From Planctomycetota bacterium (GTDB taxonomy: Bacteria; Planctomycetota; Phycisphaerae; Phycisphaerales; SM1A02), in NCBI GenBank assembly GCA_027295435.1, contig JAPUKX010000072.1, positions 1 to 29,927 on the forward strand: DNA of 29,927 nt, read 5' to 3'. The notes under the pieces were generated by a model. It had not been told where the DNA came from, made no database searches, and saw only the letters and a list, made by a program, of their open reading frames with translations. The translations under genes and the position numbers were made by a program. Shown piece by piece: positions 957 through 29,765 of this stretch. Within the stretch, counting starts at the first letter, position 1; the number at the start of each line of letters is the position of its first letter.

Positions 957-2159
957 ATGGCATGCGTGAATCATTCTCCAAGGACAATCGCCGTTGCACC
1001 GGCGGCAGTCCTGATCTCCATCTGTATCAGCCATTCCGGCGTTGGACAGACGCTGAGTGTCAACTTCCGCGGCACAATGCCGCTGGGCACCACCGCGACG
1101 GACCAGTACGGGCAGAAGTTCACCGTCACCGGACTCAGCGGGCTGACGTGGGTACAAGACACGCTCTTCGTCGCCGTCATGGATAACTCCGACAAACTGG
1201 TCTTGCTCGATGTCCAGTTGGACGTGGAGGGTACGATCAGCTTCGCCGCGATCATCGGTGGTCTCACCCTCGCCGAGTCGCGCGACTTCGAGGGCATCGC
1301 ATACACCACAGTCGACCGTGACAGCGTGTTTCTTTCTGAGGAGGACACACCCGCCATTCAGGAATACAGCCACTCGGACGGCACTTTGCTCCAAACGCTC
1401 GACACACCCTCGGTGTTCTTCAACCTGCGTCCGAATTTCGGCTTCGAATCGCTTTCGCGACATCCTGCGGGCACGGAGTTGTGGACCGCGAACGAAGAAG
1501 CGCTCACGGTCGATGGGGAGCTTTCAACGCCGGTAGACGGGACGGTTGTCCGTCTATTGCGCTATACGCGCAGCGGTGAAACCGGTATTCCTGCCGAGCA
1601 GTTTGCCCACATCACGGAACCGATGCACGGCGGAAAGATTTCCGGCGGTCGTAGCGGCCTCGTCGATCTCGCCGTGTTACCGAATAGCAAGATACTTGCC
1701 CTGGAACGCTCATTTGCGTTCAGCATCCCGGATTTCTTCGAAAGCCGGCTCTATGAATTGGATTTCAGCGATGCGACCAACGTTAGCGGCTTCGTCGACG
1801 GCCTGATCGGAGAGACCTTCACGCCCGTCGCGAAGCACCTCCTTTGGTCAGGCAGCGTTGGCAATCTCGAAGGACTCGCATTGGGTCCATCACTGACTGG
1901 CGGCAACCAATCGCTGCTCGGTATTGTCGACGACGGCGACCCGCTGAGCACGAACCAACTCGTCGCTTTCGAGCTGCTGCTCTCCTGCGACCTCGACGGC
2001 GACGGATCGGTTGGCATCCTTGATCTGCTTCTTCTCCTGAGCAACTGGGGACCGTGCCCGGATCCGCCCGCTCCTTGCACGGCCGACCTGAACGGTGACA
2101 GCACCGTCGGCATCCTCGACCTGCTGGCGCTGCTGGCCAACTGGGGGCCGTGTCCGTGA
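957..2159 (+). CDS. Secreted esterase-like-activity-of-phytase family beta-propeller protein with C-terminal dockerin-like tail
   Basis: Motifs GLSGLTW, DFEGIA, NFGFESLS, LWTANEEAL, LALERSF, NLEGLALGP. A hydrophobic N-terminus follows the ATG at 957 (the ORF track start at 717 overlaps the integrase relic). Tail 1986-2156: DLDGDGSVGILDLL...WG twice. Confidence 0.8.
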   Translation: MACVNHSPRTIAVAPAAVLISICISHSGVGQTLSVNFRGTMPLGTTATDQYGQKFTVTGLSGLTWVQDTLFVAVMDNSDKLVLLDVQLDVEGTISFAAIIGGLTLAESRDFEGIAYTTVDRDSVFLSEEDTPAIQEYSHSDGTLLQTLDTPSVFFNLRPNFGFESLSRHPAGTELWTANEEALTVDGELSTPVDGTVVRLLRYTRSGETGIPAEQFAHITEPMHGGKISGGRSGLVDLAVLPNSKILALERSFAFSIPDFFESRLYELDFSDATNVSGFVDGLIGETFTPVAKHLLWSGSVGNLEGLALGPSLTGGNQSLLGIVDDGDPLSTNQLVAFELLLSCDLDGDGSVGILDLLLLLSNWGPCPDPPAPCTADLNGDSTVGILDLLALLANWGPCP

Positions 2160-2317
2160 CCTGATCGCGATTCCAACTACAGCCCCGAACGTCTGTGACT
2201 GGAAGCAAGGTTTCAGACGATCCTTGAGGTTCAGTTCGAGATCGACTCGGCTCGCACAAAACACCTGTTCCAGCACAGCTCTCCGTAACGGATTCCGTTC
2301 AAGAAGGGACAGAACAA

Positions 2318-3019
2318 ATGAAAAGGCTCGCACCAATGTTGACGGTCACAATCGCCGGGCTTGCGCTCGCGGCGATTCCCACGACCACTCTGGCGGACCA
2401 CATTGCCGGGCATGACAATTGCGATCCGACCTTTCCGGTGCCGATTCCAGGTGAGGAGCACTTTACTGGCGGCGTCCTGTTTGTCACAGCGATCGGCCCC
2501 CTCGAGGACGACATCATCACGAACACATCCTTTGATATCACCTATGTGTCGGACGGTGCCACACCGGCGGATGAGATCCAGTTGCACGGCACCGTTCAGG
2601 TGGACAAGGGCTTCGCCGAGTTCATCGTCACCGGGGAGGATCTCGGTTTCGGCAGTGGACCCGGAACGTTCAAGGGCACGTTCTCCACCGATGCCCTCAA
2701 CGGGGTTGTGTGGCCGAGCCCCCTGTTCCCCCCTCATTCGACCGTTGATTTGCAGATTGATGCCGTCAACGGCGGCATCGGAGGATATGCCTACTTCGTC
2801 GATTCGTTCATCAACTTTGATGTCATTCCGGCGCCGCCTTGCGCACCCCCGTGCCCGGCCGACCTCGATGGCGATGGCATCGTCGGGATTCTCGACCTGC
2901 TTGCGCTGCTTGCCGCTTGGGCCACCGACCCCGGTGGACCGCCCGACTTCGACGGCGACGGCACCGTTGGCATCCTCGACCTGCTCACGCTGCTAGCCAA
3001 CTGGGGATCGTGCCCGTAA
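2318..3019 (+). CDS. Secreted protein, unrecognised beta-rich domain plus dockerin-like tail
   Basis: Signal-peptide-like start MKRLAPMLTVTIAGLALAAIPTTTLA. Tail 2852-3016: CPADLDGDGIVGILDLL...DFDGDGTVGILDLLTLLANWGSCP. Confidence 0.8.
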   Translation: MKRLAPMLTVTIAGLALAAIPTTTLADHIAGHDNCDPTFPVPIPGEEHFTGGVLFVTAIGPLEDDIITNTSFDITYVSDGATPADEIQLHGTVQVDKGFAEFIVTGEDLGFGSGPGTFKGTFSTDALNGVVWPSPLFPPHSTVDLQIDAVNGGIGGYAYFVDSFINFDVIPAPPCAPPCPADLDGDGIVGILDLLALLAAWATDPGGPPDFDGDGTVGILDLLTLLANWGSCP

Positions 3020-3027
3020 CGATGCTT

Positions 3028-3065
3028 GGACGGAATAGGACGGAATAGCGGACGAAAGGACGGGA
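3028..3065 (+). repeat. Short tandem array GGACGGAATA x2 plus two degenerate GGACG units
   Basis: GGACGGAATA GGACGGAATA GC GGACGAAA GGACGGGA, starting 8 nt after the stop at 3019. Confidence 0.75.
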
Positions 3066-3077
3066 GTCTCTTATTCT

Positions 3078-3140
3078 TGTCCGGTTCGACCTGAGTCCTG
3101 CTCTGCCGACCTCAACTGCGACGGGGAGGTCAGCGCGTAG
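3078..3140 (+). pseudogene. Orphan fragment of a dockerin-like tail (CPVRPESCSADLNCDGEVSA*)
   Basis: The intergenic translation resembles CPDPPAPCTADLNGDSTVG and CPPPPAPCSADLDGDGSVG in the neighbouring tails. It ends in TAG at 3138-3140 and has no associated gene body. Confidence 0.6.
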
Positions 3141-3254
3141 CCAGGTGTCGCGATGATGGCAGCAGGCGGCGGACACCGCCGAGAAATCCGGCCGGGTCAA
3201 TCTGGGCAAGGCTGCGCCGGCGCCTTCATCGGTAAGTTGTTTTCCATTTTCTAC

Positions 3255-3284
3255 TTGCGATACGTTGCAACCGCGTGTTATTCT
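3255..3284 (+). promoter_or_regulatory. Possible sigma70-type promoter for the FG-GAP protein
   Basis: TTGCGA-N18-TATTCT with TG at the extended -10 position, in a locally AT-rich patch about 117 nt upstream of the ATG at 3402. Confidence 0.35.
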
Positions 3285-3401
3285 AAGACATATAGTACCT
3301 GCAGACGGCAGGCCGTGGTTGGAGCCGCCGGTCACTACACGCCAACGATGGACGTGCTCTTGCTTTACCGCCATTACTTCACTCAGGTAGGAAGAAGAAA
3401 G

Positions 3402-5126
3402 ATGTTTCGTCGCCACTCCTCTATATCATCCCGCTTGGTCCTTACTGGGGCGATGACATCGCTTCTGTCTGCGGGCACCCACGCTCAGCAGTTCATCGAG
3501 GAGTCGGCCAGCCGGTTCCCCTCGCCGAACCCCACCGACTACACCAACCAGCTTACGATCGGTGATATAGACGCCGACGGCGATCTGGACCTCATCTTCG
3601 CCAACGGCGCCGGCTTCTCATCGCCGGGCGCCGCCCAACCTCAGCGCGTCTACATCAACAATGGGTCCGGCGTGTTCACCGATGAGTCGGCGGCGCGGCT
3701 CGGCTTTTCCGGCTGGTGTCGCGGCGTCGAGCTGGGCGACATCGACGACGACGGCGATCTGGACCTGATCTTCGCCCAGGATTTCAACAAGCTGCCCCAC
3801 CTTTTCGCCAACGACGGCAACGGCTTCTTCACCGACGTCACCGCTGCGCAACTACCCAATATCACCCTCAGCAGCTCCCGCGCCCAGTTCGGCGATGTTG
3901 ACAACGACGGCGATCTTGACATCTACATCACCAGCGGGTCCACGAATCGCTTCGGCTGCGGCCAGTACCGCTTGTACCTCAACGACGGCAGCGGCTTCTT
4001 CACCGACGTGACGGCTACCCACCTTCCGATCGGGGCCGTCTGCAGCAACATGGACTGCATCTTCGGTGATATCGACGGCGACTTCGACCTTGATGTCAAG
4101 ACCGCCAGCACCGGCAGCAACAGCAGCCGCCTTTACCGAAACGACGGGACCGGCGTGTTTTCCCTCGTTACCACTATTCCGGGCGATAGCTCCTGCTATT
4201 CCTATGACTTCGGCGACATGGATGGAGACGGCGATCTGGATCTCATCGGCATCAATGCGGGCACCGGCTCCACCGAACTCCTGCTGCGCAACGACGGCAC
4301 CGGAAGCTTCACCAACGTCAGCGGGCAAATCTCGCCCAACACCAGCCTGGACGACAACGACAGCAAGTTCTTCGACTACGACAATGATGGAGATCTGGAT
4401 CTCATCATCGCCCGACTCGGCTCCGGCGGCGAACGAATCTACAACAACGATGGCCATGGCAATTTCACCCAGGTCGCCGGCGTGATCCAGATCATCAGCG
4501 ACTCTTCCCTCGACCTCATGGTCGCTGATCTCACCAACGATGGAAGGCTGGACATTGTGACCGCGCAAGGCGAATCCGGGAACTTCCAGAACCGTATCTA
4601 CATCAACAACGGGCCCGCGGACACCATCCCCCCAGCAATCCAGCGCACCGAGCAGGCGCCCGACACCGCCGACACCAAAGGGCCCTACGTCATTCGCACA
4701 GTGATCTACGACAGTGTCACGTCCGATCGCGGGCCGTTCCTCGATGACGTCACGCTCAACTACGTGATTGCGATCCCAGCCGGCCTGGGCGGCGTGCAGC
4801 AGGTGCCGATGAAGTGGGCCGGCAACTCGCTGTGGCGCGGTGAAATCCCCGGCCAGCCGTCCGGCAGCCTCGTTGAGTATTATGTCACCGCGACCGACTT
4901 CGCCGGCAACTCCAAGACCGGCCCCATCCTGACGTTCACCGTCACCTGTAGTGGCACCGTCGGCGACATCGATTGCAACGGCATCGTTAACATCTTCGAT
5001 CTGTTGGCGCTGATTGCCGCATGGGGTCCGTGTCCGCCTCCGCCGGCGCCCTGCTCCGCCGATCTCGACGGTGACGGCTCCGTCGGGATCCTCGACCTGC
5101 TCACACTCCTGGCGAACTGGGGATGA
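3402..5126 (+). CDS. Secreted FG-GAP/VCBS repeat protein with Ig-like domain and dockerin-like tail
   Basis: Seven GDxDxDGDLD-type repeats, each followed by a (L/I)xxNxGxGxF-like motif in most cases. Signal-like N-terminus from ATG 3402 with a purine-rich upstream region. Ig-like segment (VPMKW...VEYYVTATD) and tail 4962-5123. Confidence 0.85.
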   Translation: MFRRHSSISSRLVLTGAMTSLLSAGTHAQQFIEESASRFPSPNPTDYTNQLTIGDIDADGDLDLIFANGAGFSSPGAAQPQRVYINNGSGVFTDESAARLGFSGWCRGVELGDIDDDGDLDLIFAQDFNKLPHLFANDGNGFFTDVTAAQLPNITLSSSRAQFGDVDNDGDLDIYITSGSTNRFGCGQYRLYLNDGSGFFTDVTATHLPIGAVCSNMDCIFGDIDGDFDLDVKTASTGSNSSRLYRNDGTGVFSLVTTIPGDSSCYSYDFGDMDGDGDLDLIGINAGTGSTELLLRNDGTGSFTNVSGQISPNTSLDDNDSKFFDYDNDGDLDLIIARLGSGGERIYNNDGHGNFTQVAGVIQIISDSSLDLMVADLTNDGRLDIVTAQGESGNFQNRIYINNGPADTIPPAIQRTEQAPDTADTKGPYVIRTVIYDSVTSDRGPFLDDVTLNYVIAIPAGLGGVQQVPMKWAGNSLWRGEIPGQPSGSLVEYYVTATDFAGNSKTGPILTFTVTCSGTVGDIDCNGIVNIFDLLALIAAWGPCPPPPAPCSADLDGDGSVGILDLLTLLANWG

Positions 5127-5132
5127 AGAAAG

Positions 5133-5164
5133 GGCTTGAAGGCTTGCAGGCTTGGAGGCTTGAG
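5133..5164 (+). repeat. Octamer tandem array GGCTTGNN x4
   Basis: GGCTTGAA GGCTTGCA GGCTTGGA GGCTTGAG, starting 6 nt after the stop at 5126, between convergent genes. Confidence 0.85.
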
Positions 5165-5275
5165 GGGTAGTGGTCACGCGCGCGGCCTGGAGGCCGCGGC
5201 TAAACAGACGGTCGGCCGGGCGCCGTGCCATACACGGTCGGGCATCGCGAATGGATTCGATTCGTACAAGTCAGT

Positions 5276-5701
5276 TCAGGCGAGCACGTCGAGCAACGTG
5301 CCGAGGTTCGTGACGTGGAAGTAGTTCACGACGCGGACGATCTCGGCCGGATCGGGCGGGGTTACATCTCGAAACTCGGTGGGCTTGCCGAGCGGGTCGG
5401 GGGCATAGGGTTTGCGATCGCTCGGCGGAGACGCCTGCGGGTCGGGCGGCACATCGCGTGCAAGGCGATGCAGCGATGGCTGGAACATGTCAGTCTGGAC
5501 CGGCTGAACCAAGCCGCGCCGAAGACGGTCAATCTCCCGGCGGGCGGCGTTGAGCACGATCCGGCATTGCCCGGCGTCGCACTCACGAGAGGCCGGGGCG
5601 GTTTCGCTCGCCTGGCGGTTCCGCAGCGCCGTAGCCAGGCTCTCGGCATGAGCCCGAATGAGCCGCTCGACCGGATCGAACACGTTGAACCTATTCTCCA
5701 C
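5276..5701 (-). CDS. Hypothetical protein (~141 aa) ending in NLGTLLDVLA
   Basis: ORF 5276-5884. The 5' part of the long ORF looks non-coding and overlaps the queA upstream region, so a GTG at 5701 or 5707 is the more plausible start. Helical N-half, Pro-rich linker, short ordered C-terminus. Confidence 0.6.
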   Translation of the reverse strand: MENRFNVFDPVERLIRAHAESLATALRNRQASETAPASRECDAGQCRIVLNAARREIDRLRRGLVQPVQTDMFQPSLHRLARDVPPDPQASPPSDRKPYAPDPLGKPTEFRDVTPPDPAEIVRVVNYFHVTNLGTLLDVLA

Positions 5702-5891
5702 GTGCACACAATGGGAGCAGCACGGCGCGCACCAATTGCAGCTGCGGGTCCCGGCCGGGCGTAGCCGCCTATAACAACTCGGCTCCCGCGATTCGCTCAC
5801 GGCACGCCTGGCGAAGTATGAACCGCGCGGGATAATCTGGTTGTGCCGGATGTCGCCCCGGCTCCACGGCCCAGCACCCGTCAACGTGCAG

Positions 5892-6992
5892 ATGTCGAAA
5901 CACGTGTTGCGAACCGATGAGCTTGATTACCAGCTTCCACAGGAGCTGATCGCCACCCGCCCGGTTAAGCCGCGCGACTCTGCCCGGATGCTGGTGATGA
6001 GCCGCTACGACAACACGATCGAGCATCGCCACGTGCGCGATCTGCCGCGCTACCTCCGGTCAGACGACGCGATGGTCTTCAACACCACCGCGGTCATGCG
6101 CGCCGGGCTGCTTGGCCGGCGAGTCGGCACCGGCGGCCGCGTCGAAGGACTGTTTCTCGACGAGCCCGAGCCGGGCCGTTGGCTGGTGATGCTCCGAAGC
6201 AACGGCCGACTGCGGCGGGGCCAGCAGATCGAACTGCTCGACCCACAAGGCCGCCCGCAAGGACATCGCCTCGAACTACTCGACCGCCAGGCATCGGGCT
6301 GGGTGGCGCGAGTGCTTGGGCCGGGATCAGCGGCTTCGGTCCTCGATCGGGTTGGACATACGCCGCTGCCGCCGTACATTCGCCGGGTACGGGGCGATCA
6401 GCTCGTCGCCGATGCGCTCGATCGGCAGTGGTACCAGACGGTCTATGCAGATGCTCAGCAGCGCGGATCGGTGGCGGCGCCCACCGCAGGGCTGCACTTC
6501 ACGCCTGATCTTCTAGCCAGGCTCGAGAAGTCCGGCGTGCGGCGGATCGACGTGATGCTGCACATCGGCCTGGGAACGTTTCAGCCGATCACCTCGGGCA
6601 GGATCGACCAGCATGTGATGCACGCAGAGCATTACGCGGTCTCGCCCGAAGCGATCGCAGCTCTGCGCGAGCTGCGCAAGGGTCGGCGGGGGCGCATCTT
6701 CGCCATCGGCAGCACCGTGGTCCGCACGCTTGAGTCGCTGCCCGAGCCATTGCCTCAAACGGCTGCGTCGGATGGCCCATTCAGCGGGCAAACGGACCTT
6801 CTGATTGCTCCGCCCTATCAGTTCAAACATGTTGATGGGATGCTGACCAACTTCCACCTTCCTCGCTCCACGCTTCTGGCCCTGGTAGCGGCGATGATCG
6901 GGCTGGATCGCCTCAAGGCCGTCTATCACGAGGCGATCGAGCAGCGCTACCGGTTCTACAGCTACGGCGACGCTATGCTCATTCTTCCATAG
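5892..6992 (+). CDS. queA: S-adenosylmethionine:tRNA ribosyltransferase-isomerase
   Basis: LDYQLPQELIA, PLPPYI, SVAAPTAGLHFT, HIGLGTFQP, LTNFHLPRSTLL, YRFYSYGDAMLI. The start could also be GTG 5904 or TTG 5907. Confidence 0.97.
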   Translation: MSKHVLRTDELDYQLPQELIATRPVKPRDSARMLVMSRYDNTIEHRHVRDLPRYLRSDDAMVFNTTAVMRAGLLGRRVGTGGRVEGLFLDEPEPGRWLVMLRSNGRLRRGQQIELLDPQGRPQGHRLELLDRQASGWVARVLGPGSAASVLDRVGHTPLPPYIRRVRGDQLVADALDRQWYQTVYADAQQRGSVAAPTAGLHFTPDLLARLEKSGVRRIDVMLHIGLGTFQPITSGRIDQHVMHAEHYAVSPEAIAALRELRKGRRGRIFAIGSTVVRTLESLPEPLPQTAASDGPFSGQTDLLIAPPYQFKHVDGMLTNFHLPRSTLLALVAAMIGLDRLKAVYHEAIEQRYRFYSYGDAMLILP

Positions 6993-7066
6993 CCGTCCGA
7001 TTTCTACGGCCGGGCGGCGGCCAATCCCGATATCCTTTGTGCTGGGGTCGTTCGTTGCCAAATGGC

Positions 7067-14270: not shown

Positions 14271-14415
14271 GGCCGATGCTCAGGAACCAGGCTGATGCAG
14301 ACAGCCTATCTCGAACACCGGGCGTGAACAAGGGCGACCGCGGCCCAACCGGCACCGCCACGAGGTGAATCGAGGGCGGCTGGCCGGCCGTACAATTGAC
14401 CCTCGCGTGAGCACT

Positions 14416-17400
14416 ATGCGATCCACCCCCCAGCAGGTGAACCTCGCTCAGCACGAAGGTTGGGCCCTTTTCTCCGCCGCCGAGGCCATGCTCAAGGGTG
14501 CCCTGGAAGCGGAGACCGTCGTGAAACTGCTCACGGGACCTCGAAGCGAATCATTTTCCAGCCTGTTCGATCTGGGCGGGGACCGGTTGGTCTCGCAGTT
14601 GTTGCATACCCACGGAACGAGCCTGCTCGCAACTCCCGACGCCAGCCGTGGCGTGACACTCGCCGCGCATGCAGCGGTCTCGGCCCATCAAGCGTTCGCG
14701 CTGGTTCCCAACGACCAGCTCGATATCACCATGCCTGCGATCAGCCGGGCTTGCGACTGCTCATTTGATAGCGGGGGTGCAATGTGCCTGGTGTTGGAAG
14801 ACGATCCGCAGAATTGTCGGGCATCGTGCCCGCGACGCGCAGCCATTCGTTTGGACCTGCCATGCATCGAGCCGACAGGAGTTGCACAACTGCGCGATGC
14901 GATGGAGCAGGGACTGCGTCTGAGCCGAGCCGGGCGCGGCGTGGTGGCGATGGTGGTGCACCGCCGGATTCTGCGAGCCATCGAGACGCTGGATGCTCGT
15001 CCGAATCGAGTCACGGATCCTGTCCATACCCCTATTGTCCACCGCGACCGACGCGGCCCCCGCTGGGCTGAGACGGGCGGCGTGCTTCGGATGGCTCGTC
15101 GATTGGAGATGAACCTCACCACCAGCGCCCCCAGCCCCGGGGAAAGGCTGCCGGTCGGCTTCATTGTCATCGGCGCCGCCGCTCCGGCCATGTTCCACCT
15201 GATTCACGTGCTGCGGTTGCACGGCCGAGTGCCGGTGCTTCAGCTGGGCCTGGTTCACCCGATCGACGACTCGATCGTGCAGCGATTGCTCGGCCGATGC
15301 GAGCAAGTCGTTGTGCTGGAACCCCGACCCGGGTCGATCGAGACCGGCGTGCTTGGGGTGTGCGAGTCAATGCGCAGTCGCGGCGAGCAACCGGCCGTTG
15401 TGTGGTCTCGGACGCTGCCACCCGACCCGGCGGGGACCGCGCAGGTCATGCGGCCCGATGGAGCCCTGCACCCCTCGGCCTTGGCCGCCAAGATCGTCCA
15501 TTTGCTGCGCACCATCCGCCCCGGCCTGGTGGTGGCTTCCCCACCCGTGTCCAATCTGCTGCTGCCGGACGGGGCTGTGCCTCCTCGAGGCATAGAACTC
15601 GGCTCCGTCGGGGCGCTGGCCCAGATCCGTAGCGTGCTCGCCGATGTGGACCAATGGCTGCGCGATCAGTCGGCGATTGACGAGGGCTCCGCAGAGGCCC
15701 CAGAGCCGACGGCCCTGGCCATCGACGGGATCGAGCCGATCGGGGCCCCAGGGCGAGTCGTGCGCGTGGAGACGTGGCCATATCAACGATTTCTTTTCGA
15801 AGGATCCGCGTCCTTGCAGCAGGCGGCGAGTGATGACGGTTCGTGGATCTTTGTGATCTCGTCTATTGGTGCTGCGGATGGGCAAGACGTGCAGCGTATG
15901 GTGCGAGGCGCCGCTCCAGTCGCACGAGCTGACCGGGTGCGGATCGAGCTGGCCGATCTGAACGATCGCGCCGCATTGCAGGATTTGCTGCGCGCGCTGA
16001 CCCTGCTCGATCAACTGAGCGTGGTCATTGTGCGCGACGGGCCCCCAGCTCGGTATGACGTGGCTGCCATGGAACGGTCCCGCGCTGAAGTCGACCGCCT
16101 GGGATATGAACCCAGCCAGCGCGCGGTCTGGCCGGCGGAGGAGGCGTGCGCCATTCGTCATCCGGCTGACCCGATGCGGTCCCTCCCATCACATGCGTCG
16201 AGCTCAGCGGCGATGCGAACGCAGTTCAGCGTTGTCCGGACTTCCCAGTCTCGACCCGATACCGTGCAACGCCGGATCAGAATCCGTCCTCTCTTGGAGC
16301 AGGCGGAGGTCGTTCGTGCTCGGCCGCCAGCGAGCACTTGGCGGGATGCGCGGGGCGCCCGGTTGGCCCGACCCAAGCCCCTCCATGCCAGTCAGTCCCA
16401 ATGGCGAGCCCACTTGGCAGGATTTCGTGGACAGGCGCCAGGTGTGGCCGCATGGGCGCTGTGTGAAGCCGGCCGAATCATGGGGTACCAGGTCCGAAGT
16501 CTGAATGACCCCACGCCAATCGGCCCCGGCTTGCGCGCGTGGGCCCAGGTGCTGTTCGCACGACCGGGCCGAGATCAAGCTCCAGTGCCCGTCACCGCAG
16601 CGATCCCCTACGGCGAAGCTGATTTGTTTCTCGGACTGGAGCTTCGCGAAGCCCTGCGGGGCATCGAACCCGGCGGATCGTTGCGTGTGGCGAGTCCCGA
16701 CCGCACCTGGGTGATCGTCAACTCCGGGCCGTGTGAGGGCCAGCGCGACGCCCAGCCACCTGCGGAGTTCGCGGCCCAGGCAGCCCCGGCCCTGCTTGCG
16801 GTCTGCCGGCCCCAGTCACCGCTGATCGAAGACTTCGCCCGAGCCTGTCGCAGCGCTTTCCACACCGATCGCGTCGTTGATCTGGCTCTCCTCGGCGCGG
16901 CGTTCCAGCGCGGATTGATCCCGGTGACACCCGACGCCATCGAGGCAGCCTTACAGCAGGTCGAGGCGCGAGGCTTCGGCCGGGCTAATGAAGCGTTCCA
17001 TTTCGGCTGTCACCTTGCCGTCGATGGCCGGCAGTTTGCTCGCTGCAACGCCACCTGCGCCGACGAGGCCCCTCGCATCGTCCGCCGCACGATCCTGTTG
17101 TTGAAACGAAGACGGCGGGCTGGTACACGGTCGGGTACCGCTCGCTTGGCGCGGATACTGGAGCAGACCCTCGCCCAGATGCCCGGCTTGGCGGAAACGG
17201 ACCTCGGCCGACACGCCCGCCGAGACCTCGTGATCGCCCTGCAGCACTGCCTCGCCTGGGGTGGACTCGCCTATGCCCAGCGATACGCCGATCTGGTCAC
17301 CGCACTATACCTAGCTGACCGCGGCGACCAGGGGCGGGCGGTCACCCGCAGCGCGATTCTGCCGCTGGCCGAGGCCATGCTGATCCGCGATCCGATCTAC

Positions 17401-17871
17401 ATCGCGACCATGGCCACCAGCGCCGAGCAACGCCGTCGCGCGCGTCAGTGGCTCAACGTCAAGCTGGCTCGGGGCGACCGGCTCGAACGACGCTTCCTTA
17501 CCCGCATCGAACTGGTCGCCTTTCGGCGACGAATCAGGCTCGACATCCGATCCAGCCTCTGGCCGGCTCAACTTGTGGCGTGTGCGCGACACTGGATGCC
17601 ACAGCGGTGGCGCGGCACCTTGAGGGAGCGCCAAATCCGCGAGTATTTGATCGATGTAACCCAGCGCGCTGCCCGCGGCGCCACCCATGACTACCAGCAG
17701 TGGAGTGAAACCATGCAACGACTGCATGACCAGGCCCTGGCGGATCGCCTACGCGACATGGCGCTGGCGGAACTTCGGATGCTCATCGAGCCCGATCCTC
17801 GGCCTGCCGCCGAGCCGCAGCGCCTTGCGGCTGGGGCGTCCGGGCCACGAGGCATTCGTGCATCGGGCTGA
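14416..17871 (+). CDS. Fused indolepyruvate:ferredoxin oxidoreductase-like protein (alpha + beta/gamma + C-terminal helical domain) with degenerate cofactor motifs
   Basis: AEAMLKGALEA, VLQLGLVHP, VVVLEP, ADLFLGLE, WVIVN, LLGAAFQRGLIPVTPDAIEAAL, NEAFHFG and AYAQRYADLV occur in the order seen in single-chain IOR-family proteins. The ATG at 14416 is preferred over the GTG at 14365. Confidence 0.75.
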   Translation: MRSTPQQVNLAQHEGWALFSAAEAMLKGALEAETVVKLLTGPRSESFSSLFDLGGDRLVSQLLHTHGTSLLATPDASRGVTLAAHAAVSAHQAFALVPNDQLDITMPAISRACDCSFDSGGAMCLVLEDDPQNCRASCPRRAAIRLDLPCIEPTGVAQLRDAMEQGLRLSRAGRGVVAMVVHRRILRAIETLDARPNRVTDPVHTPIVHRDRRGPRWAETGGVLRMARRLEMNLTTSAPSPGERLPVGFIVIGAAAPAMFHLIHVLRLHGRVPVLQLGLVHPIDDSIVQRLLGRCEQVVVLEPRPGSIETGVLGVCESMRSRGEQPAVVWSRTLPPDPAGTAQVMRPDGALHPSALAAKIVHLLRTIRPGLVVASPPVSNLLLPDGAVPPRGIELGSVGALAQIRSVLADVDQWLRDQSAIDEGSAEAPEPTALAIDGIEPIGAPGRVVRVETWPYQRFLFEGSASLQQAASDDGSWIFVISSIGAADGQDVQRMVRGAAPVARADRVRIELADLNDRAALQDLLRALTLLDQLSVVIVRDGPPARYDVAAMERSRAEVDRLGYEPSQRAVWPAEEACAIRHPADPMRSLPSHASSSAAMRTQFSVVRTSQSRPDTVQRRIRIRPLLEQAEVVRARPPASTWRDARGARLARPKPLHASQSQWRAHLAGFRGQAPGVAAWALCEAGRIMGYQVRSLNDPTPIGPGLRAWAQVLFARPGRDQAPVPVTAAIPYGEADLFLGLELREALRGIEPGGSLRVASPDRTWVIVNSGPCEGQRDAQPPAEFAAQAAPALLAVCRPQSPLIEDFARACRSAFHTDRVVDLALLGAAFQRGLIPVTPDAIEAALQQVEARGFGRANEAFHFGCHLAVDGRQFARCNATCADEAPRIVRRTILLLKRRRRAGTRSGTARLARILEQTLAQMPGLAETDLGRHARRDLVIALQHCLAWGGLAYAQRYADLVTALYLADRGDQGRAVTRSAILPLAEAMLIRDPIYIATMATSAEQRRRARQWLNVKLARGDRLERRFLTRIELVAFRRRIRLDIRSSLWPAQLVACARHWMPQRWRGTLRERQIREYLIDVTQRAARGATHDYQQWSETMQRLHDQALADRLRDMALAELRMLIEPDPRPAAEPQRLAAGASGPRGIRASG

Positions 17872-22242: not shown

Positions 22243-22258
22243 GGTGGTGAATGTGCCC

Positions 22259-22264
22259 AGTATA
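22259..22264 (-). promoter_or_regulatory. Possible -10 element (TATACT) for tRNA-Leu
   Basis: TATACT on the minus strand 16 nt upstream of the tRNA 5' end. A divergent TATGAT lies at 22337-22342 upstream of queE. Confidence 0.35.
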
Positions 22265-22349
22265 GTCCGGCGGGGAGGCATGTCGAGACGGCGCCCGGCC
22301 TGGCGCTTCGCAGCCCGCGCGAAGCCGCGAGCGAGCTATGATCTTTTCC

Positions 22350-23045: not shown

Positions 23046-23095
23046 GCTCCGCGAGTTGGCGAGTTGTGCCGAGCCCGGCTATACCGGTTGGGCAG

Positions 23096-24064
23096 ATGAC
23101 CAGATCGTCCCCCGCCGCCGTTGGCTTCATCAGCATTCTTCTCACTCTGATCGCCTGGTCCAGCGTTCCGCTGTTTCTCAGACACTTTGCGGAGTCGATC
23201 GACGCCTGGACTTCCAACGGATGGCGTTACGGGTTTGCGGCGCTGCTCTGGGCGCCGGTGCTGGTGGTCGCAGGTTACCGCCGCCGGCTTCCTGCCGGGC
23301 TGTGGCGGGCGGCGCTGGTTCCCAGCATCATCAACGGCGCGGGGCAGGTGTGTTTTACATGGGCGCATTACAAGATTGACCCGGGGTTGCTCACGTTCGG
23401 CTTGCGCAGTCAGTTGCTCTTCGCCGCTGTGGGCGCGTACGTGCTGTTCCCGATGGAGCGGCCCATCATCCGGTCGCGCCGCTTTCTGCTTGGGGTGGTG
23501 GTGGTCACGGGGGGCACCGCCGGGGCCGTGCTCCTTGGCCGCCAACCCGTCGTCGGGGCGCACGCCGCCGGCGTCATCCTGTCCGTGGTCAGTGGGTTTC
23601 TGTTTGGGGCCTACGGGTTGGCGGTGCGCAAATATATGCACCAAGTGAACCCGGTCATCGCCTTCGCCGCCATCAGCCAGTACACAGCCGCGGCGATGGT
23701 TGCGCTGATGCTGATCCGAGGCGAATCCTTCGGCCTGATGGCGCTGGCGCTCCCCACCAGCGAGTTCGTGTTGCTGTTGGTGTCGGCCGTCATCGGGATC
23801 GCGCTGGGCCACGTCCTGTACTACACCAGCATCGCACGCCTGGGTGTCGCGGTGTCATCCGGCGTACTGCAATTGCACCCGTTCGGGGTAGCGGTGGCGT
23901 CATTCCTTCTCTTCCGCGAGATCCTGACGCCGGCTCAGTGGATCAGCGGCAGCATCGCCCTCGCGGGCGCGGGGCTGATGGTCGCGGCTCAAGCACGGGT
24001 GAGCCGCCCTGTACATATCGATCTCGCGGATCGGGCGATCGCCCAAGGCGAGGGCGGGTCGTGA
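23096..24064 (+). CDS. DMT/EamA-family transporter
   Basis: About ten hydrophobic segments in two related halves, with a GxxLxxxG-like motif near the end of each half. The ATG at 23096 avoids the overlap with queE seen in the ORF track. Confidence 0.85.
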   Translation: MTRSSPAAVGFISILLTLIAWSSVPLFLRHFAESIDAWTSNGWRYGFAALLWAPVLVVAGYRRRLPAGLWRAALVPSIINGAGQVCFTWAHYKIDPGLLTFGLRSQLLFAAVGAYVLFPMERPIIRSRRFLLGVVVVTGGTAGAVLLGRQPVVGAHAAGVILSVVSGFLFGAYGLAVRKYMHQVNPVIAFAAISQYTAAAMVALMLIRGESFGLMALALPTSEFVLLLVSAVIGIALGHVLYYTSIARLGVAVSSGVLQLHPFGVAVASFLLFREILTPAQWISGSIALAGAGLMVAAQARVSRPVHIDLADRAIAQGEGGS

Positions 24065-24093
24065 GCCGCCTTGCCCGCGGCAGCTACACTAAA

Positions 24094-24149
24094 CCTCCAT
24101 CCCCAATCCCCAATCCCTAATCCCTAATCCCTAACCCCTAACTCCTGAC
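24094..24149 (+). repeat. Eight-unit heptamer array with stepwise drift
   Basis: CCTCCAT CCCCAAT CCCCAAT CCCTAAT CCCTAAT CCCTAAC CCCTAAC TCCTGAC. Confidence 0.9.
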
Positions 24150-24160
24150 ACCTTCCTCCC

Positions 24161-24523
24161 ATGCACGTTCGGCTGGTCAAATCGTTTGGCTTTGAAGCGG
24201 CGCATTGGCTGCCGACGTTTCCCCAGGGGCACAAATGCCGGCGGATGCACGGCCACTCCTTCCGGGTGGATGTCGTGGTGGAAGGTCAAGTCTCGCAAGA
24301 CAAGGGATACCTCATCGACTATGGCAAGATCGAGGAGGCGGTGAAGCCGCTGCGGCAGCAGCTCGACCATCAATGCCTCAATGAAGTCCGAGGCCTGGAG
24401 AATCCCACCAGCGAGATTCTGGCTCAATGGATTTGGGATCATCTCCAGCCCCAACTGCCGTTGCTTGCTGAGATCGCCGTCCACGAAACGTGCAGCGCCC
24501 GATGCGTCTACCGCGGCCCCTGA
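24161..24523 (+). CDS. queD: 6-carboxy-5,6,7,8-tetrahydropterin synthase
   Basis: FEAAHWL, CRRMHGHSFRV, IDYGKI, LDHQCLNE, LENPTSEILAQWI, VHET. Confidence 0.95.
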   Translation: MHVRLVKSFGFEAAHWLPTFPQGHKCRRMHGHSFRVDVVVEGQVSQDKGYLIDYGKIEEAVKPLRQQLDHQCLNEVRGLENPTSEILAQWIWDHLQPQLPLLAEIAVHETCSARCVYRGP

Positions 24524-24567
24524 GCTATCTACCAAAGGGAGACGTCGCTCTCACTGCGGGCGCACAC

Positions 24568-24595
24568 AAGAAAACCCAGGGAAAGCGTTCCCTGG
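24568..24595 (-). terminator. Probable intrinsic terminator, minus strand
   Basis: Perfect 8-bp stem CCAGGGAA-CGCT-TTCCCTGG followed by GTTTTCTT on the minus strand. No U-tract follows on the plus strand. Confidence 0.6.
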
Positions 24596-24794
24596 AAACG
24601 GCAGATGGTCCGCACAGCGGGCCCTACGACTCGGGGCGCGACGATCGCGTCAACAGAGTGCGTGAGAAAGGACCGCGACCACTCCCGACGGAATCGAGAC
24701 GGCATTATGGGGCAGCCGCGCTTGCGCACGAGCGCAATGAAACCCGGGCTGGGGACAGGGCGGCTGTGAAGGACAGCCCGGCTTGGTCAACGCG

Positions 24795-24822
24795 CTGAAC
24801 GCTGGGAGCTGATCACTGAGAG
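24795..24822 (+). repeat. Heptamer array CTGAACG CTGGGAG CTGATCA CTGAGAG
   Basis: Four CTG-phased 7-mers, 2 nt beyond the stop of the 24825-26984 gene. Confidence 0.65.
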
Positions 24823-24824
24823 GG

Positions 24825-26984
24825 CTACCCCCAGTTGGCCAGCAAGGCAAGCAGGTCGAGGATGCCGACGTTCTCGTCCCCATCGAGATCGGCGGGACAA
24901 GGAGCGGGCGGATCGGGACACGGACCCCACGCCGCCAGCAGCGCCAGCAGATCAAGGATGCCGACCGTGCCGTCGCCATCGAGGTCGCCGGGGATCGTCT
25001 GCCCGCATTCGATGACCGCGACCTGCAGATCGTCCATAGCGGCTTCCACAATGGAGCCGTCGCCTTCGTCGGACGCGATGAACCGCAAGCGCACCTGCGC
25101 GGTCGGCGCAACGAAGTCGGCGACGCTGAACTGATGGAAGATCCACCCGCCGGTCGTATCCGGGCCGCCCGGACCGACCGTTTCCACATTGGTCCAGGTT
25201 GATCCGTTGTTGTTGGAGATGTCCACGACGAAAACGTCGGCGTTGGGCGAAGCCCCGGTATCGTTTGAGTACCACCGCCAATAGCTGATCTCGGCATTGG
25301 GGGCGCCTAAAAGATCAATGACCGGCGAGGTCAGCGTGGTCTGGCCGCTATCGACATCGTTCGCACCGATCGGGCCGCCGGGCGACCCCTGGCCGGTGAC
25401 GAAGCACATCGTTGCGGGATCGGGGGTGTGGTCGTTGCCAGGCTGAGCAGGAGTGCCGTTGGGATCGACGCGCTCCCAGATGCCGGTCGTCGCGTCGTCA
25501 GCCGGGGCGCCGACGACCCAGCCGGTGTCGGCCTCAAAGTCGTCTTCCATAACGATCTTCAAGTCGAAGCCGGAGAGGGTTTCGAACGTCGTGCTGGGAG
25601 CATCGAGCGGGTCTTTGACGCTGATCCCGGAGGTGGTCTGCGCACTGAGGTAATAGGACACGTTCTGCCCGCAAGGGATGGACGGGAAGACCACGTCATA
25701 GAGGCTCTCCGATATCTGCGCCAGGGGCACGTCCACGAAGCCGGCCCCTGCGTCGTAATGCAGCAGAGGCGAATCGGGATCGAGGGCGCCGCCGTCCTGG
25801 CCGACGATTTCAACCGCAAACGAGTCGCCATCGGGGTTGATCAGATCGGGTCGACCTTGGGGATAGCTAAAGACCAACAGCTGAGGCCCAACGTCGATTA
25901 TGTAGAGGCCCGTGGACAGATCGGAAACCACCACCCGGTCGGGGCCCAAGAACGGATAGACGCCCCAGGCCCCGTTGAAGCCGATCGGCGGTCCCGCAAA
26001 GGTATCATAGCTGGCGACGAATTCGAGCAAACCGGTGGCGGGGTCGATGTCGAAGACCTGCAGCCCCGCCTGGTACCAGGCGTTGTACAGGCGATAGCCG
26101 TCAATCACCTGATTGTGAACGCTAAACGCCTGTTTGCCAGGAAGGGCAAGCGAGTCAGTCAGTTCTAGGGTCACGAAGGTGCCCTGGTCGGTGATGCGAT
26201 ACACTTTGATCCCCCCGCCTTCGCGCTCCTCTCCGGTGACGACATAATCGCCATTCGCGGTCGGCCAGCAGGAGTGAGTGTTGTTGCCGCCGTCGGGCGT
26301 ACTGCCGAGGAAGGTGGGCATCTGCGTGGCCACATTGGTGACGTCATAGATCCACAGCCCGCTGTCCCACGCACAGGCATAGAGCCGGCCGTCACGCACC
26401 ACCATGTCGTGCACGAACGAACTACCGACGTTTTCGAGAATCCATTTCGGCGTAGTGATGGGCCCGGGAGGCGGGTTATCCGGATCAAGCCCCGTCAGAT
26501 CAACGATACCCACTCGCGTTGTTCCGCTGTCGGCGAAGTACAGAAAACCCGCGTTGTAGAAGACGTTATGGATGGCGTTGAACCCGGAGATGCTGACATC
26601 GATCAGCGCAATGGGGTCAAGAGGATTGCGAACATCAACGATGTGGACAGCAGCTTCGTTATTGCTTCCCAACCCAATGAACAGAAGGTCATCGGCGACC
26701 TTGACGTCCTGGGCCGAAGCGGAGCCGTTGGGAGGAGGCAACAGGTATTCCACAGCCTGAGGGTTGGTTGGATCGCTGATATCGACGATGTGAACGCCAG
26801 CATGGCCGAAGTGTCCAATGTAGGCGTAGTTTCCGTCTCCCCACACGTCGCCATAGGAGCCGGCGAACCCGTTCCAATGCCCAACCAGCGTGGCATCGAT
26901 CGGATCGTCCTGGGCCGGAGCCTGACCGACAAACAGGATCAGACAAACCAGAGGCCACCGCCTCCATCGCCGAGCGTTATTCAC
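24825..26984 (-). CDS. Secreted choice-of-anchor B / LVIVD-repeat protein with Ig-like and jelly-roll domains and a dockerin-like tail
   Basis: GTG at 26984 with SD GGAGGG, then a signal-like peptide. YGDVWG, IVDISDP, FVHD, NTHSCW, SVHN, GAWGVYPF. Tail 24989-24828. The track start at 27110 adds 42 non-signal residues. Confidence 0.85.
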   Translation of the reverse strand: MNNARRWRRWPLVCLILFVGQAPAQDDPIDATLVGHWNGFAGSYGDVWGDGNYAYIGHFGHAGVHIVDISDPTNPQAVEYLLPPPNGSASAQDVKVADDLLFIGLGSNNEAAVHIVDVRNPLDPIALIDVSISGFNAIHNVFYNAGFLYFADSGTTRVGIVDLTGLDPDNPPPGPITTPKWILENVGSSFVHDMVVRDGRLYACAWDSGLWIYDVTNVATQMPTFLGSTPDGGNNTHSCWPTANGDYVVTGEEREGGGIKVYRITDQGTFVTLELTDSLALPGKQAFSVHNQVIDGYRLYNAWYQAGLQVFDIDPATGLLEFVASYDTFAGPPIGFNGAWGVYPFLGPDRVVVSDLSTGLYIIDVGPQLLVFSYPQGRPDLINPDGDSFAVEIVGQDGGALDPDSPLLHYDAGAGFVDVPLAQISESLYDVVFPSIPCGQNVSYYLSAQTTSGISVKDPLDAPSTTFETLSGFDLKIVMEDDFEADTGWVVGAPADDATTGIWERVDPNGTPAQPGNDHTPDPATMCFVTGQGSPGGPIGANDVDSGQTTLTSPVIDLLGAPNAEISYWRWYSNDTGASPNADVFVVDISNNNGSTWTNVETVGPGGPDTTGGWIFHQFSVADFVAPTAQVRLRFIASDEGDGSIVEAAMDDLQVAVIECGQTIPGDLDGDGTVGILDLLALLAAWGPCPDPPAPCPADLDGDENVGILDLLALLANWG

Positions 26985-27109
26985 TTTATTCCCTCCAGTG
27001 TCGTGGCAGGCATTCAGCACATCATCTCGCAAAGGCTGCGATGACTCAGGGACGTTAGAATTTTCATTATACCTCGTCTGGATGAAGAGATCGCTGTATA
27101 CGTCGAGCA

Positions 27110-27184
27110 TCAGCCCCAGTTGGCCAGTAGCGGCGCCAAATCGAACGCATCAACGCAGCCGTCCGGCAGGTTGGCCGGGCTGGT
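27110..27184 (-). pseudogene. Orphan dockerin-like tail fragment (TSPANLPDGCVDAFDLAPLLANWG*)
   Basis: Frame bounded by TAG at 27187-27185 and TGA at 27112-27110. It matches the tail of the upstream gene (SGAANVPDGCVDAFDLAKLLAEWC) and ends like the downstream gene (LLANWG*). Confidence 0.75.
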
Positions 27185-27338
27185 CTACTAGATTCCACGT
27201 GTCTCGACGACCACGTTTGGCCGCGGAGATCATCATCGCAACCATCTGACATCACAGTAGGTATTGACGCATCGAGGAACACAATTGGCAGCCGCAGCGC
27301 CTTCTTCAAGCGGCTGCGGCTCACGCGGCGCGATTAAA

Positions 27339-27424
27339 CGAGCCGCGCACGTCAGTAAGCGAACTCGGTGTGTCCGCTCCTCGCCACGGCGAGTCGGCTG
27401 CGGAGACCTCACGGTCGCGGCTCG
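27339..27424. repeat. REP-like inverted repeat with internal hairpin
   Basis: CGAGCCGCG (27339-27347) and CGCGGCTCG (27416-27424) form a 9-bp perfect inverted pair. An internal CTCGCC-AC-GGCGAG hairpin lies between them, and an AGCCGCAGC...GCTGCGGCT hairpin lies just before. Confidence 0.55.
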
Positions 27425-27455
27425 GAACGGTCGCTCCAGTTGCTTCGCAACCGCT

Positions 27456-29765
27456 CTAGAAGCAGGTGCCGCACGGATTGCCGCCGGCGACGGAGCACCA
27501 CTCGGCCAGCAGCTTCGCCAGGTCGAACGCATCGACACACCCATCCGGCACATTGGCCGCACCGGAGATATCTGCAACGGCGAGATTCGCCGGCGTGCAG
27601 TTCTCGCAAGGCGGGCTCGGCGGGTTCGGATCGTTGACGCCGGAGCACCACGCCCCGAGTATGGCCCCGAGGTCAAAGGCATCAACGCATCCATCAGGTG
27701 CACCACGCGGGCCGTTGATGTCGGCGGTGGCTGACGGCTCGCACACGACCTCGCTCACCGTGAAGTCGTCCACCGCGGCCTCGACCAAGGAGCCTGCGCC
27801 CTCATCGGACGCGATGAACCGCACGCGCACCTGCGCGGTGGGCAGAACAAAGTCCGTCACATTGAACGCGTGGAAGAACCATCCGCCAGAGGTCTGCGGA
27901 CCGCTGGGGCCGATGGTCTCGACGTTGGTCCAGGTTGATCCGTTGTCGTTGGAGATGTCAACGACGAAGACATCGGCGTTCGGATCGGCACCGGTGCTGT
28001 TGGAGTACCACCGCCAATAGCTAATCTGAGCATCGGGGATCGCGGAGAGGTCGATGGTCGGCGTCGTAAGCGTGGTTTGGCCGCCGTCCACGTCGTTGTC
28101 GCCCAGGCCGCAGCCGGGCGCGCACTGGCCGGTCACGAAGCACATCGTTCCGGGGACGGGGGTGTGGTCGTCTTCGGGTTGAGCAGCGGTGCCGACCGGA
28201 TCGACCCGCTCCCAAATGCCGGTGCTGGCGTCATCGCCGGGGGCACCGACCACCCACCCAGTGTCCGCCTCCAGGTCGTCTTGCGACTGCACAAGGATCT
28301 CGTTAGCGGAGAGAACGCTGAATGTCTCCCCGGGCGCGCCGGAGGGATCGGTGAACGTTGTGCCGCTGGTCGCTTGGGCGCTGACGTAGTAGGACACCTC
28401 GAGGCCGCACTCGATCGCCGGGAAGACCGCGTCGTATACATTCTCGGACACGAGCTGCATGGGGACGGTGACGAAGCCCTGGCCGATGTCGTAATGCAAC
28501 AGCGCCGTATTCGGCTCAACGGTCACCCCACAGCTCGCCGCAACTTCCACCAGGACCGCCGTGCCACCCTGTGGATCAATCAGCTCCGGCCGGCCCTGGG
28601 GGTAGGCGAAGGTCAGGGCGCCGGCACTCAGGGCGTCTGCGGGGTCCAGGATAAACAAGCCACGATTGATGTCGCTGACAATCACCGTTCCGCTGGGAAA
28701 GAACGGATATACGCCCCAGGCGCCGTCAAACCCGCTGCCGTCATTCTCCGGATACGTATCAAACCACCCAACCTGGACCGGGTTCACCGGATCATCGGCG
28801 CAGAAAATGCGCAGACCAGCGTGGTACTCGGCCTCGTAGATGAAACCGTCGCGGACGTACAGATTGTGATCGGTGGCTGACACGCCGGAGCTGTAGGTGT
28901 TCACGAGCAGTGGATTGGACAGGTCGGTCACGTCGAAGATGAGGGTCTCGTTGACGCCGTCGGTTTCGTCATCGAGGTACAGGTATTGCCTATCCTCGCT
29001 CAACCAGCACTGGTGGCAGTAGCTGAGGTTCGGATAGGTCGTGCGGGAGAGGCGGAACATGTTGGACTTGTTCGTGACATCGTAGATATCCAGGCCGGTA
29101 CCGCCATTGGCGCAGAAGGCGATCTGCTTCCCGGCGTAGGGGCCTGAGGTGTACGTGACGATCTGGGCGTCGTGGACATACGCGCCTTGCGAGCTGGAAA
29201 TCTGGCCGGCAAGCGTCGGATTGGCTGGATCGGACAGATCAAAGGCGACGAGACGGCCGCCGTTGATGTTGGCTCCACACAGGTAGAGGAATCCGCTGTC
29301 GCTGTCGATGGCGACGTCGTGACTTGTGGCAAGGCCGCCTTTAGTCACCTGCGCCACCAGTGTCACGTTGCCGTTGTCCACATCCGACAAATCGACGACG
29401 TCCATGCCGCCGCCGCATTCGTTGACCACATCGCAGTAGTCGCCATAGACCTTAACGTCCCCCCAGAGGCAGTTGGTATGCGCGACCTGCCCGACGATGA
29501 CCGGGCTGCTGGGAATGGTGATCTCGACGACGACGAGCGTGTTGGACAGGCCCATCAACGCGTATTCACGCCCCGAAGCTGAGACGTAACCCCAACAATC
29601 GTTGCCGTTGGCGGCGCCGCCGAGGGCACTCAGGTCGAGCCAGGCGTGCTGGGAGACGTTGTTCGAGGTGAACTGAGCGCCCGCTTGAGCGAGTCCGAGC
29701 CCGGCCGCCGCCAGCGATGCCACCACAAAACGGCCCATCACCGATCGTGACCTAAGGCTTCCCAT
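27456..29765 (-). CDS. Secreted choice-of-anchor B family protein with a Cys-rich variant dockerin-like tail
   Basis: Signal-like N-terminus, then NDCWGY...GREYALMG, WGDVKVY, SHDV, YVHD, YCHQCW, LDDE, TDHNLY, GAWGVYPF. Tail 27725-27459 contains PDGCVDAFDL twice. Confidence 0.88.
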   Translation of the reverse strand: MGSLRSRSVMGRFVVASLAAAGLGLAQAGAQFTSNNVSQHAWLDLSALGGAANGNDCWGYVSASGREYALMGLSNTLVVVEITIPSSPVIVGQVAHTNCLWGDVKVYGDYCDVVNECGGGMDVVDLSDVDNGNVTLVAQVTKGGLATSHDVAIDSDSGFLYLCGANINGGRLVAFDLSDPANPTLAGQISSSQGAYVHDAQIVTYTSGPYAGKQIAFCANGGTGLDIYDVTNKSNMFRLSRTTYPNLSYCHQCWLSEDRQYLYLDDETDGVNETLIFDVTDLSNPLLVNTYSSGVSATDHNLYVRDGFIYEAEYHAGLRIFCADDPVNPVQVGWFDTYPENDGSGFDGAWGVYPFFPSGTVIVSDINRGLFILDPADALSAGALTFAYPQGRPELIDPQGGTAVLVEVAASCGVTVEPNTALLHYDIGQGFVTVPMQLVSENVYDAVFPAIECGLEVSYYVSAQATSGTTFTDPSGAPGETFSVLSANEILVQSQDDLEADTGWVVGAPGDDASTGIWERVDPVGTAAQPEDDHTPVPGTMCFVTGQCAPGCGLGDNDVDGGQTTLTTPTIDLSAIPDAQISYWRWYSNSTGADPNADVFVVDISNDNGSTWTNVETIGPSGPQTSGGWFFHAFNVTDFVLPTAQVRVRFIASDEGAGSLVEAAVDDFTVSEVVCEPSATADINGPRGAPDGCVDAFDLGAILGAWCSGVNDPNPPSPPCENCTPANLAVADISGAANVPDGCVDAFDLAKLLAEWCSVAGGNPCGTCF

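Follow-up and report, generated by a model that had tools for sequence, protein, structure and literature searches.

The window analysed here, a stretch of 29,927 nucleotides (contig JAPUKX010000072.1), is one contig (C335) of a small metagenome-assembled genome (MAG) from a marine-type Phycisphaerales planctomycete, which amounts to 2.24 Mb in 364 contigs and is 86% complete (genome code G000). Five of the proteins that it encodes end in a short tail made of two dockerin-like repeats, and this tail, referred to below as the tag, is the subject of the present analysis. All five have a signal-peptide-like N-terminus, as judged by reading the translations and by a crude heuristic. On the forward strand, P0001 (957..2159) consists of a signal peptide, a Phytase-like beta-propeller (PF13449, 6e-45) and a canonical two-repeat tail ending in NWGPCP (repeats at 1989-2048 and 2085-2144); P0002 (2318..3019) has a signal peptide, a jelly-roll body of ~145 amino acids (aa) from a Planctomycetota-only family and a subtype-B tail (2861-2920 and 2945-3004); and P0003 (3402..5126) combines a signal peptide with an FG-GAP propeller and a subtype-A tail ending in NWG (4965-5024 and 5061-5120). 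The other two lie on the reverse strand. P0004 (24825..26984, with a GTG start at 26984) has a signal peptide, a body resembling LVIVD/choice-of-anchor-B proteins (weak match) and a subtype-A tail (24927-24986 and 24831-24890), and P0005 (27456..29765) is a choice-of-anchor B protein (TIGR04312, 327 bits) with a GC-type dockerin tail, which ends in NPCGTCF and has its PDGCVDAFDL repeats at 27648-27698 and 27498-27548.

The four canonical tails (P0001 to P0004) follow the pattern C..DLDGDGxVGILDLLxLLxxWG, a linker, and DxDGDGxVGILDLLxLLANWG, and are 67-82% identical to each other at the protein level. The tail of P0005 is a distinct subtype built around PDGCVDAFDL...W, and is 47% identical to the canonical ones. 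The Pfam Dockerin_1 profile (gathering threshold 22.9 bits) scores P0001 at 23.2, P0003 at 22.7, P0004 at 19.3 and P0002 at 17.8 bits, while the cut-off of the NCBIfam model NF041540 (29 bits) is reached by P0005 only (31.4 bits); P0002 scores 22.6 bits with this model and the other three tails give no match. An earlier note on this stretch had described five secreted open reading frames (ORFs) bearing one shared, Cys-flanked two-repeat tag. The ORFs all exist as described and their repeat coordinates agree with ours; the Cys flanks are real, and occur in two layouts genome-wide. The observation is thereby confirmed, the tail of P0005 being of the related GC type. The near-identity claimed for the four tails at the DNA level is borne out by a shared 17-mer, GGCATCCTCGACCTGCT, with 3 exact occurrences and 4 with up to 2 mismatches (0.01 expected), but not by the tails as a whole, whose nucleotide column identity is only 79%. 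The type of tag is not new, one subtype being modelled by NCBI (NF041540).

The relation of the tail to dockerins was examined at the level of sequence profiles and of predicted structures. A profile of the four tails searched against PDB sequences placed dockerins first (2y3n_B, 6e-4; 5nrk_B, 8e-4), with matches spanning both repeats. An AlphaFold model of the tail only, with a predicted local distance difference test score (pLDDT) of 88.6, matches dockerins almost exclusively, the best match being again 2y3n_B (TM-scores 0.72/0.79, root-mean-square deviation 1.6 A). In the model of P0002 (pLDDT 89.9), residues 178-231 match the dockerin of Clostridium perfringens NagH (2ozn_B, Z 8.0), followed by 2y3n_D (Z 6.8) and 2vn5_B (Z 6.0). 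Among 59 diverse tails, Asp is invariant at loop positions 1 and 12 of both repeats, and positions 3 and 5 are mostly D or N, which is the tandem F-hand arrangement of PF00404, each repeat being a 12-residue Ca2+ loop with a helix after it; Dockerin_1 matches 17 of 39 other tagged ORFs at E<=1e-3. The tail is thus predicted to be a dockerin-fold module in which the residues for Ca ligation are intact. Like type I dockerins (PF00404; 2y3n_B, 2vn5_B, 5nrk_B), it has two tandem F-hand repeats of ~21 residues with Asp at positions 1, 3, 5 and 12, is mostly C-terminal, is internally symmetric between its two repeats, and varies mainly at positions 10/11. It differs from them in the Cys braces that flank the repeats or lie in the linker, in the shortness of this linker (7-11 residues, with no middle helix), and in Pfam scores that are at or under the cut-off. 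The setting is also different, since no cohesin is detected in this genus, the cargo does not consist of carbohydrate-active enzymes, and the host is a Gram-negative-type planctomycete with 50 to >200 copies per 2-4 Mb genome. As for the NCBI model, whose name is 'GC-type dockerin domain-anchored protein', the tail of P0005 and about 20 such tails in the genome agree with it, whereas the four canonical tails remain below its cut-off and have loops of the regular DxDGDG form, with no PDGC motif. The name 'GC-type dockerin' was found in no paper of the searched literature.

The genome-wide count of tag-bearing proteins, which the earlier note had put forward as a check, comes to about 75: a repeat hidden Markov model finds the canonical tail on 55 ORFs, and a motif search finds the GC-type tail on about 20, with NF041540 itself giving 14 matches and a tail profile search 77. 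Assuming one gene per kb, this would as a rough estimate place the tag on 3-4% of the genes, the load being higher still in relatives. With few exceptions the canonical tails stop 0-3 residues short of the stop codon, and they come in two layouts: subtype A, with the linker PCPDPPxxCPA and the ending NWG, and subtype B, with a single Cys ahead of repeat 1, the linker TDPGGPP and the ending NWGPCP. The bodies that bear them fall into at least 20 unrelated groups, including FG-GAP, GSDH, subtilase with P-domain, NHL, di-haem oxidoreductase, galactose-oxidase-like and beta-helix proteins. By a crude heuristic, a signal peptide is present in 24 of the 32 tagged ORFs with an intact N-terminus. In a genome-wide comparison, the same codon is used at identical residues in 60% of the pairs for the last repeat and in 47% for the first, codon usage alone predicting 40%. 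From this synonymous divergence it follows that what is conserved is the protein sequence and that the tails are not fresh DNA copies; recent copying or pure gene conversion was therefore rejected as the sole cause of their similarity. The genome also contains about ten orphan or frameshifted half-tags, in which the last repeat is in frame behind stops or junk, several of them just downstream of, or overlapping, the 3' end of a gene. One lies in the window between P0005 and P0004 (27110..27184, reverse strand); read by eye, its sequence up to its own stop is SPANLPDGCVDAFDLAPLLANWG, with two TAG stops ahead of it and a core of the GC type that runs into a canonical ending. Others are found at C269:1360-1572(-), C130:2031-2219(+), C154:3716-3955(-) and C304:128-430(-), and in C269 a complete subtype-A tail is followed by a subtype-B half-tag right after its stop. 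These half-tags have the appearance of remnants left when recombination replaced one tail by another, or else of frameshifts from MAG assembly.

The position of the tag in its proteins can be taken by other anchoring signals. The homologues of the P0002 body are hypothetical proteins found only in Planctomycetota, and in all of them the body ends in FVDSFINFDV. After FINFDV, they carry either a two-repeat dockerin-like tail, of which there are many flavours, or a PEP-CTERM (as in P0181 and P0205) or IPTL-CTERM signal (as in P0243), all three examples being above the Pfam cut-offs. The orthologues of P0005 mostly have dockerin-like tails, with IPTL-CTERM in P0067 and P0080. The same exchange is seen between paralogues of a single genome: family Y is represented in the source genome by three copies of a ~215-aa domain that are 70-87% identical pairwise, of which C20:623-1420(-) ends with a PEP-CTERM-like signal while C188:13889-14803(-), with a single repeat, and C91:3-1073(-) end with a GC-type dockerin repeat, the bodies being 70-73% identical. 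The tag thus resembles PEP-CTERM and IPTL-CTERM in being located at the extreme C-terminus of many unrelated secreted proteins and in using the same junction in orthologues and paralogues, which is the 'choice-of-anchor' logic behind the name of TIGR04312. The two kinds of signal are very different in nature, those being composed of a short motif, a transmembrane (TM) helix and a basic cluster and processed by a dedicated membrane enzyme, an architecture that is absent from the tails, whereas the tail is a soluble, folded Ca2+-loop domain according to the predictions, with no known processing enzyme. No paper linking dockerins with PEP-CTERM was found in the searched literature.

For the comparison between genomes, 61 genomes of the order were sorted into families f1-f6, the congeners G001-G003 being 93%, 92% and 82% complete, respectively. 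The tag is present in 48 of them, mostly in >50 copies, many of these counts being lower bounds. NF041540 is distributed like the canonical tag, with matches in 35/36 genomes of f1, 6/6 of f2 and 2/2 of f6, and in 0/6 of f3, 1/5 of f4 and 0/5 of f5. The number of PEP-CTERM matches per genome goes in the opposite direction, with 0-11 in the tag-rich f1, 4-21 in f2 and 14-19 in f6, against 46-115 in the tag-poor f4 and 48-115 in 4/5 f5 genomes. Over 60 relatives, the Spearman correlation between tag count and PEP-CTERM count is -0.39, the genomes not being independent of each other. Exosortase was found in 60/60 relatives and was not found in the source genome, with its 86% completeness. Two members of the same family as the source genome constitute natural loss cases: G021 (closed, 99% complete) has neither canonical nor GC-type tags and in G032 (97% complete) there is just one match, of the GC type, while their 34 family mates carry dozens to >100 tags. 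The public contigs bearing the nearest tags are labelled as Planctomycetota or Phycisphaerales MAGs. Matches to the tag also occur in an assembly of Shewanella electrica, where the contig is 258 bp long, and in MAGs labelled as Gemmatimonadota and Acidobacteria, again on short contigs (L064, L015, L062, L089); contamination or mis-binning seems a likelier explanation for these than true occurrence.

In type I dockerins, species specificity is set by positions 10 and 11 of the loops, and the mirroring of the repeats is the basis of a dual binding mode. In the tails studied here, the same two positions are uniform within a genome and depend on the genome of origin. Across a set of 11 genomes, each contributing 8 repeats or more, position 10 carries 1.58 bits and position 11 carries 1.69 bits of information on the genome of origin, compared with 0.75 bits or less for every other position. 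The pair is IL in the source genome as well as in B3D1T2, B28T1B8 and B39T1B5, AS in MT5bin.16, VK in B23T1B5 and B63T3L11, VP in SRP193661 and B4T1B5, and FT in SS_bin_71; VK is also found in all four repeats of B2T1B10, which were too few for inclusion in the set. Among 153 tails reached via their bodies, both repeats have the same 10-11 pair in 67, for 4.5 expected and a maximum of 12 in 2,000 shuffles. Close orthologues of P0002 have bodies that are 81-94% identical and tails that are only 60-77% identical; a tail thus goes with the genome it is in rather than with the gene it is attached to. We infer that all the tails of one genome face one shared, co-evolving recognition partner, going by this pattern of residues. 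The loci used for the code were collected by means of a tail pattern in which positions 1-8 and 12-20 are partly fixed, with no constraint on positions 9-11.

The earlier note had proposed a portable docking or export tag, comparable to PEP-CTERM and with no known partner, and the predicted fold, the C-terminal position, the diversity of the cargo, the exchange of anchors and the lack of a detectable cohesin all support this proposal. The explanation that we favour, with a confidence that is only a little better than even, is that the tail serves for non-covalent docking at the cell surface, to a receptor that is shared, co-evolves fast and is not a recognisable cohesin. The tag would be a small Ca2+-binding module of the type-I dockerin fold, made of two cysteine-braced F-hand loop-helix repeats and attached at the very C-terminal end of proteins exported by the Sec route. 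After export, it would fold around two Ca2+ ions and then plug its cargo non-covalently into one shared receptor of the cell envelope, presumably by the side on which loop positions 10 and 11 lie (here Ile-Leu), and so would do the job that PEP-CTERM and IPTL-CTERM signals have in related proteins. Because the genome keeps two internally uniform tag types in parallel, about 55 of the 'GIL' and about 20 of the 'GC' type, two receptors or two receptor sites would be expected. Fold, ligand residues, position, copy numbers, cargo, anchor exchange, code and cohesin absence were all obtained computationally, the fold being a prediction, and Ca2+ binding, surface localisation and the single co-evolving receptor are what we infer from them.

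Several results weigh against this docking explanation, the first being that the hunt for a receptor found none. As the natural partner of a dockerin, cohesin was searched for with the Pfam profile (PF00963) and with a lineage profile made from nine cohesin segments of relatives. With the former, nothing was found in the source genome (best E-value 0.62) or in the three congeners, and the cut-off was passed in only 7 of the 61 genomes of the order. The latter had no match among the six-frame ORFs of the source genome, and matched in only 8/61 genomes, to which the congeners do not belong. The statement of the earlier note that no cohesin was in view therefore applies to the window and to the genome alike, the MAG being only 86% complete. 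A search of the genome by BLAST with the cohesin proteins of relatives returned only short repeat or tail matches. All the cohesin matches of the relatives fall in a single conserved family, whose members are 780-1,370 aa long. In G014 (locus L093, C1:250000-266000) and G010 (L094, C48:12000-27000), two adjacent cohesin proteins of 780-1,090 aa share a conserved C-terminal region of ~300 aa, and a protein of 232-274 aa, with one cohesin and a dockerin tail, lies beside or between them in an adaptor-like arrangement.

These proteins bring to mind the cohesin-based 'planctosome' that has been proposed for the freshwater Nemodlikiaceae, a Phycisphaerae lineage (Andrei et al. 2019, PMC6461901). 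Both systems are from Phycisphaerae, both have non-cellulolytic dockerin cargo (with a subtilase with P-domain found here too), and surface display has been proposed for the planctosome as well. The planctosome is however built on cohesin-bearing anchor and adaptor proteins, of which none were found in the present genus, a comparable family occurring in 8 of the 61 relatives. As for a cellulosome, neither a multi-cohesin scaffoldin nor a cargo dominated by carbohydrate-active enzymes was found in this genome. It could still be that the tags belong to an ordinary cohesin-dockerin system of the planctosome kind, whose scaffold cohesins belong to the 14% missing from the MAG or have diverged too far for sequence models. 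The fold of the tail and the behaviour of its specificity positions are indeed those of cohesin-binding dockerins, and the cohesin family of the eight relatives and the model published for Nemodlikiaceae point in the same direction. We nevertheless regard this explanation as unlikely, considering that both profiles are empty not only in the incomplete source genome but also in its congeners, and that about 40 of the 48 tag-rich relatives have neither a Pfam nor a lineage-profile cohesin, including the closed genomes G030, G047 and G051. Conversely, G054 has the best cohesin match and yet only one tag. Judging from these profile searches, a recognisable cohesin cannot be the general partner of the tags, because 48/61 genomes are tagged but only 8/61 have a cohesin, and because closed tag-rich genomes are without one.

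Other candidates for the receptor were considered, and none was retained. The body of P0002 was tried as a hidden cohesin; in the model described above it has a generic jelly-roll fold (furin P-domain, Z 8.9, with TNF/C1q-like proteins and carbohydrate-binding modules), no cohesin is found in its top 50 structural matches (Foldseek, VIA-align), and hhalign gives 0.1% against the lineage cohesins. The few small PEP-CTERM proteins of the genus were examined next. Family X was considered through a 221-aa PEP-CTERM protein of the source genome (C275:2678-3313(+), locus L147), which is 89-92% identical within the genus. The family has 256 representative clusters and is PEP-CTERM-anchored in 124 of 150 representatives, almost always being attached in this way, which would suit an anchored receptor; its domain is also found inside giant proteins of 1,300-2,800 aa. 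It was rejected, as it occurs in only 9/61 relatives, including the nearly tag-free G032, and does not track the tags, nor does it resemble cohesin at the profile level. Members of family Y bear dockerin tails, which makes this family cargo, and a weak Atlas lead from it to PEP-CTERM cohesin clusters (score 0.82) was unsupported by hhalign; family Z is another choice-of-anchor family and likewise cargo. The lack of profile-level similarity to cohesin in the P0002 body and in families X and Y also counts against the ordinary cohesin system discussed above.

The evidence from the code is subject to two further reservations as regards docking. The conservation outside positions 10/11 is partly a matter of ascertainment, given that the loci were found by pattern, and the concerted evolution of the two positions could be due to gene conversion or, in place of a docking receptor, to a sorting machine that recognises the tails. 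The latter possibility can be put in more general terms: the tail might be an export or sorting signal, read by a machine of the outer membrane that translocates or attaches proteins (as in the type IX secretion system, or for PEP-CTERM) and maybe removed or covalently processed, so that it would not act as a permanent plug. Its strict location at the extreme C-terminus of dozens of unrelated secreted proteins and its interchangeability with PEP-CTERM and IPTL-CTERM would be in agreement with such a role, and recognition by a single machine would also account for the uniformity of the tails within a genome. We consider it decidedly unlikely, since the tail is predicted to fold into a Ca2+-loop domain and its family is known for docking proteins to one another, it has no hydrophobic span or TM helix, basic cluster or conserved cleavage motif, no candidate machine was identified, and exosortase is present in relatives with or without tags. 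Little credence is given to the idea that the tail has no dedicated receptor and is a Ca2+-dependent stabiliser, a binder of envelope glycans or a means of tail-tail cross-linking into a surface matrix: the failure to find a protein partner in most genomes and the hydrophobic nature of the exposed positions 10-11 (Ile-Leu) speak for it, and homotypic binding would also make the tails of a genome evolve together, but a plain stabiliser needs neither a C-terminal position nor a genome-specific code at recognition positions, and the fact that membrane-anchor signals can take its place speaks for a role in localisation and not in stability.

The docking explanation can be extended from this genome to the order, with much less confidence. 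We put it forward as a tentative and rather doubtful proposition that three Phycisphaerales families have a proteome-scale, cohesin-independent display system, in which 50 to >200 secreted proteins per genome bear one or the other of two orthogonal dockerin-fold tags, a genome-specific two-residue code at positions 10/11 matches each tag to a fast-evolving receptor of a new kind, and PEP-CTERM/exosortase has largely been displaced. The type of tag is already known, being of the dockerin kind (PF00404), with one subtype described by NF041540 and with the planctosome hypothesis as a precedent. What is added by the present case is the strength of the evidence for anchor exchange, the failure to detect cohesin across the genus and most of the three families, the presence of two tags per genome, the code at positions 10/11, and the natural controls without tags.

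The remaining part of the window was also considered. Between the tailed genes lie the housekeeping genes queA, murE, murF, mraY, rluD, ispH, queE and queD, together with two squalene/phytoene synthase genes and one gene for an EamA transporter. As the intervening genes are all housekeeping ones, the window supplies no gene for a partner. A 1,168-aa ORF on the forward strand (14365-17871) has DUF6537 as its sole Pfam match, which is below threshold (24.9 bits, for a cut-off of 27).

The surface dressing of these bacteria, which are abundant in marine and freshwater environments, would thus depend on this module. If a hidden cohesin exists, the whole would amount to a non-cellulosomal cohesin-dockerin system that is ordinary apart from its very large size. 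If on the other hand the receptor is not a cohesin, the biology of dockerins would reach beyond the cohesin pair, and the orthogonal pairs of tag and receptor would also be useful for protein display.

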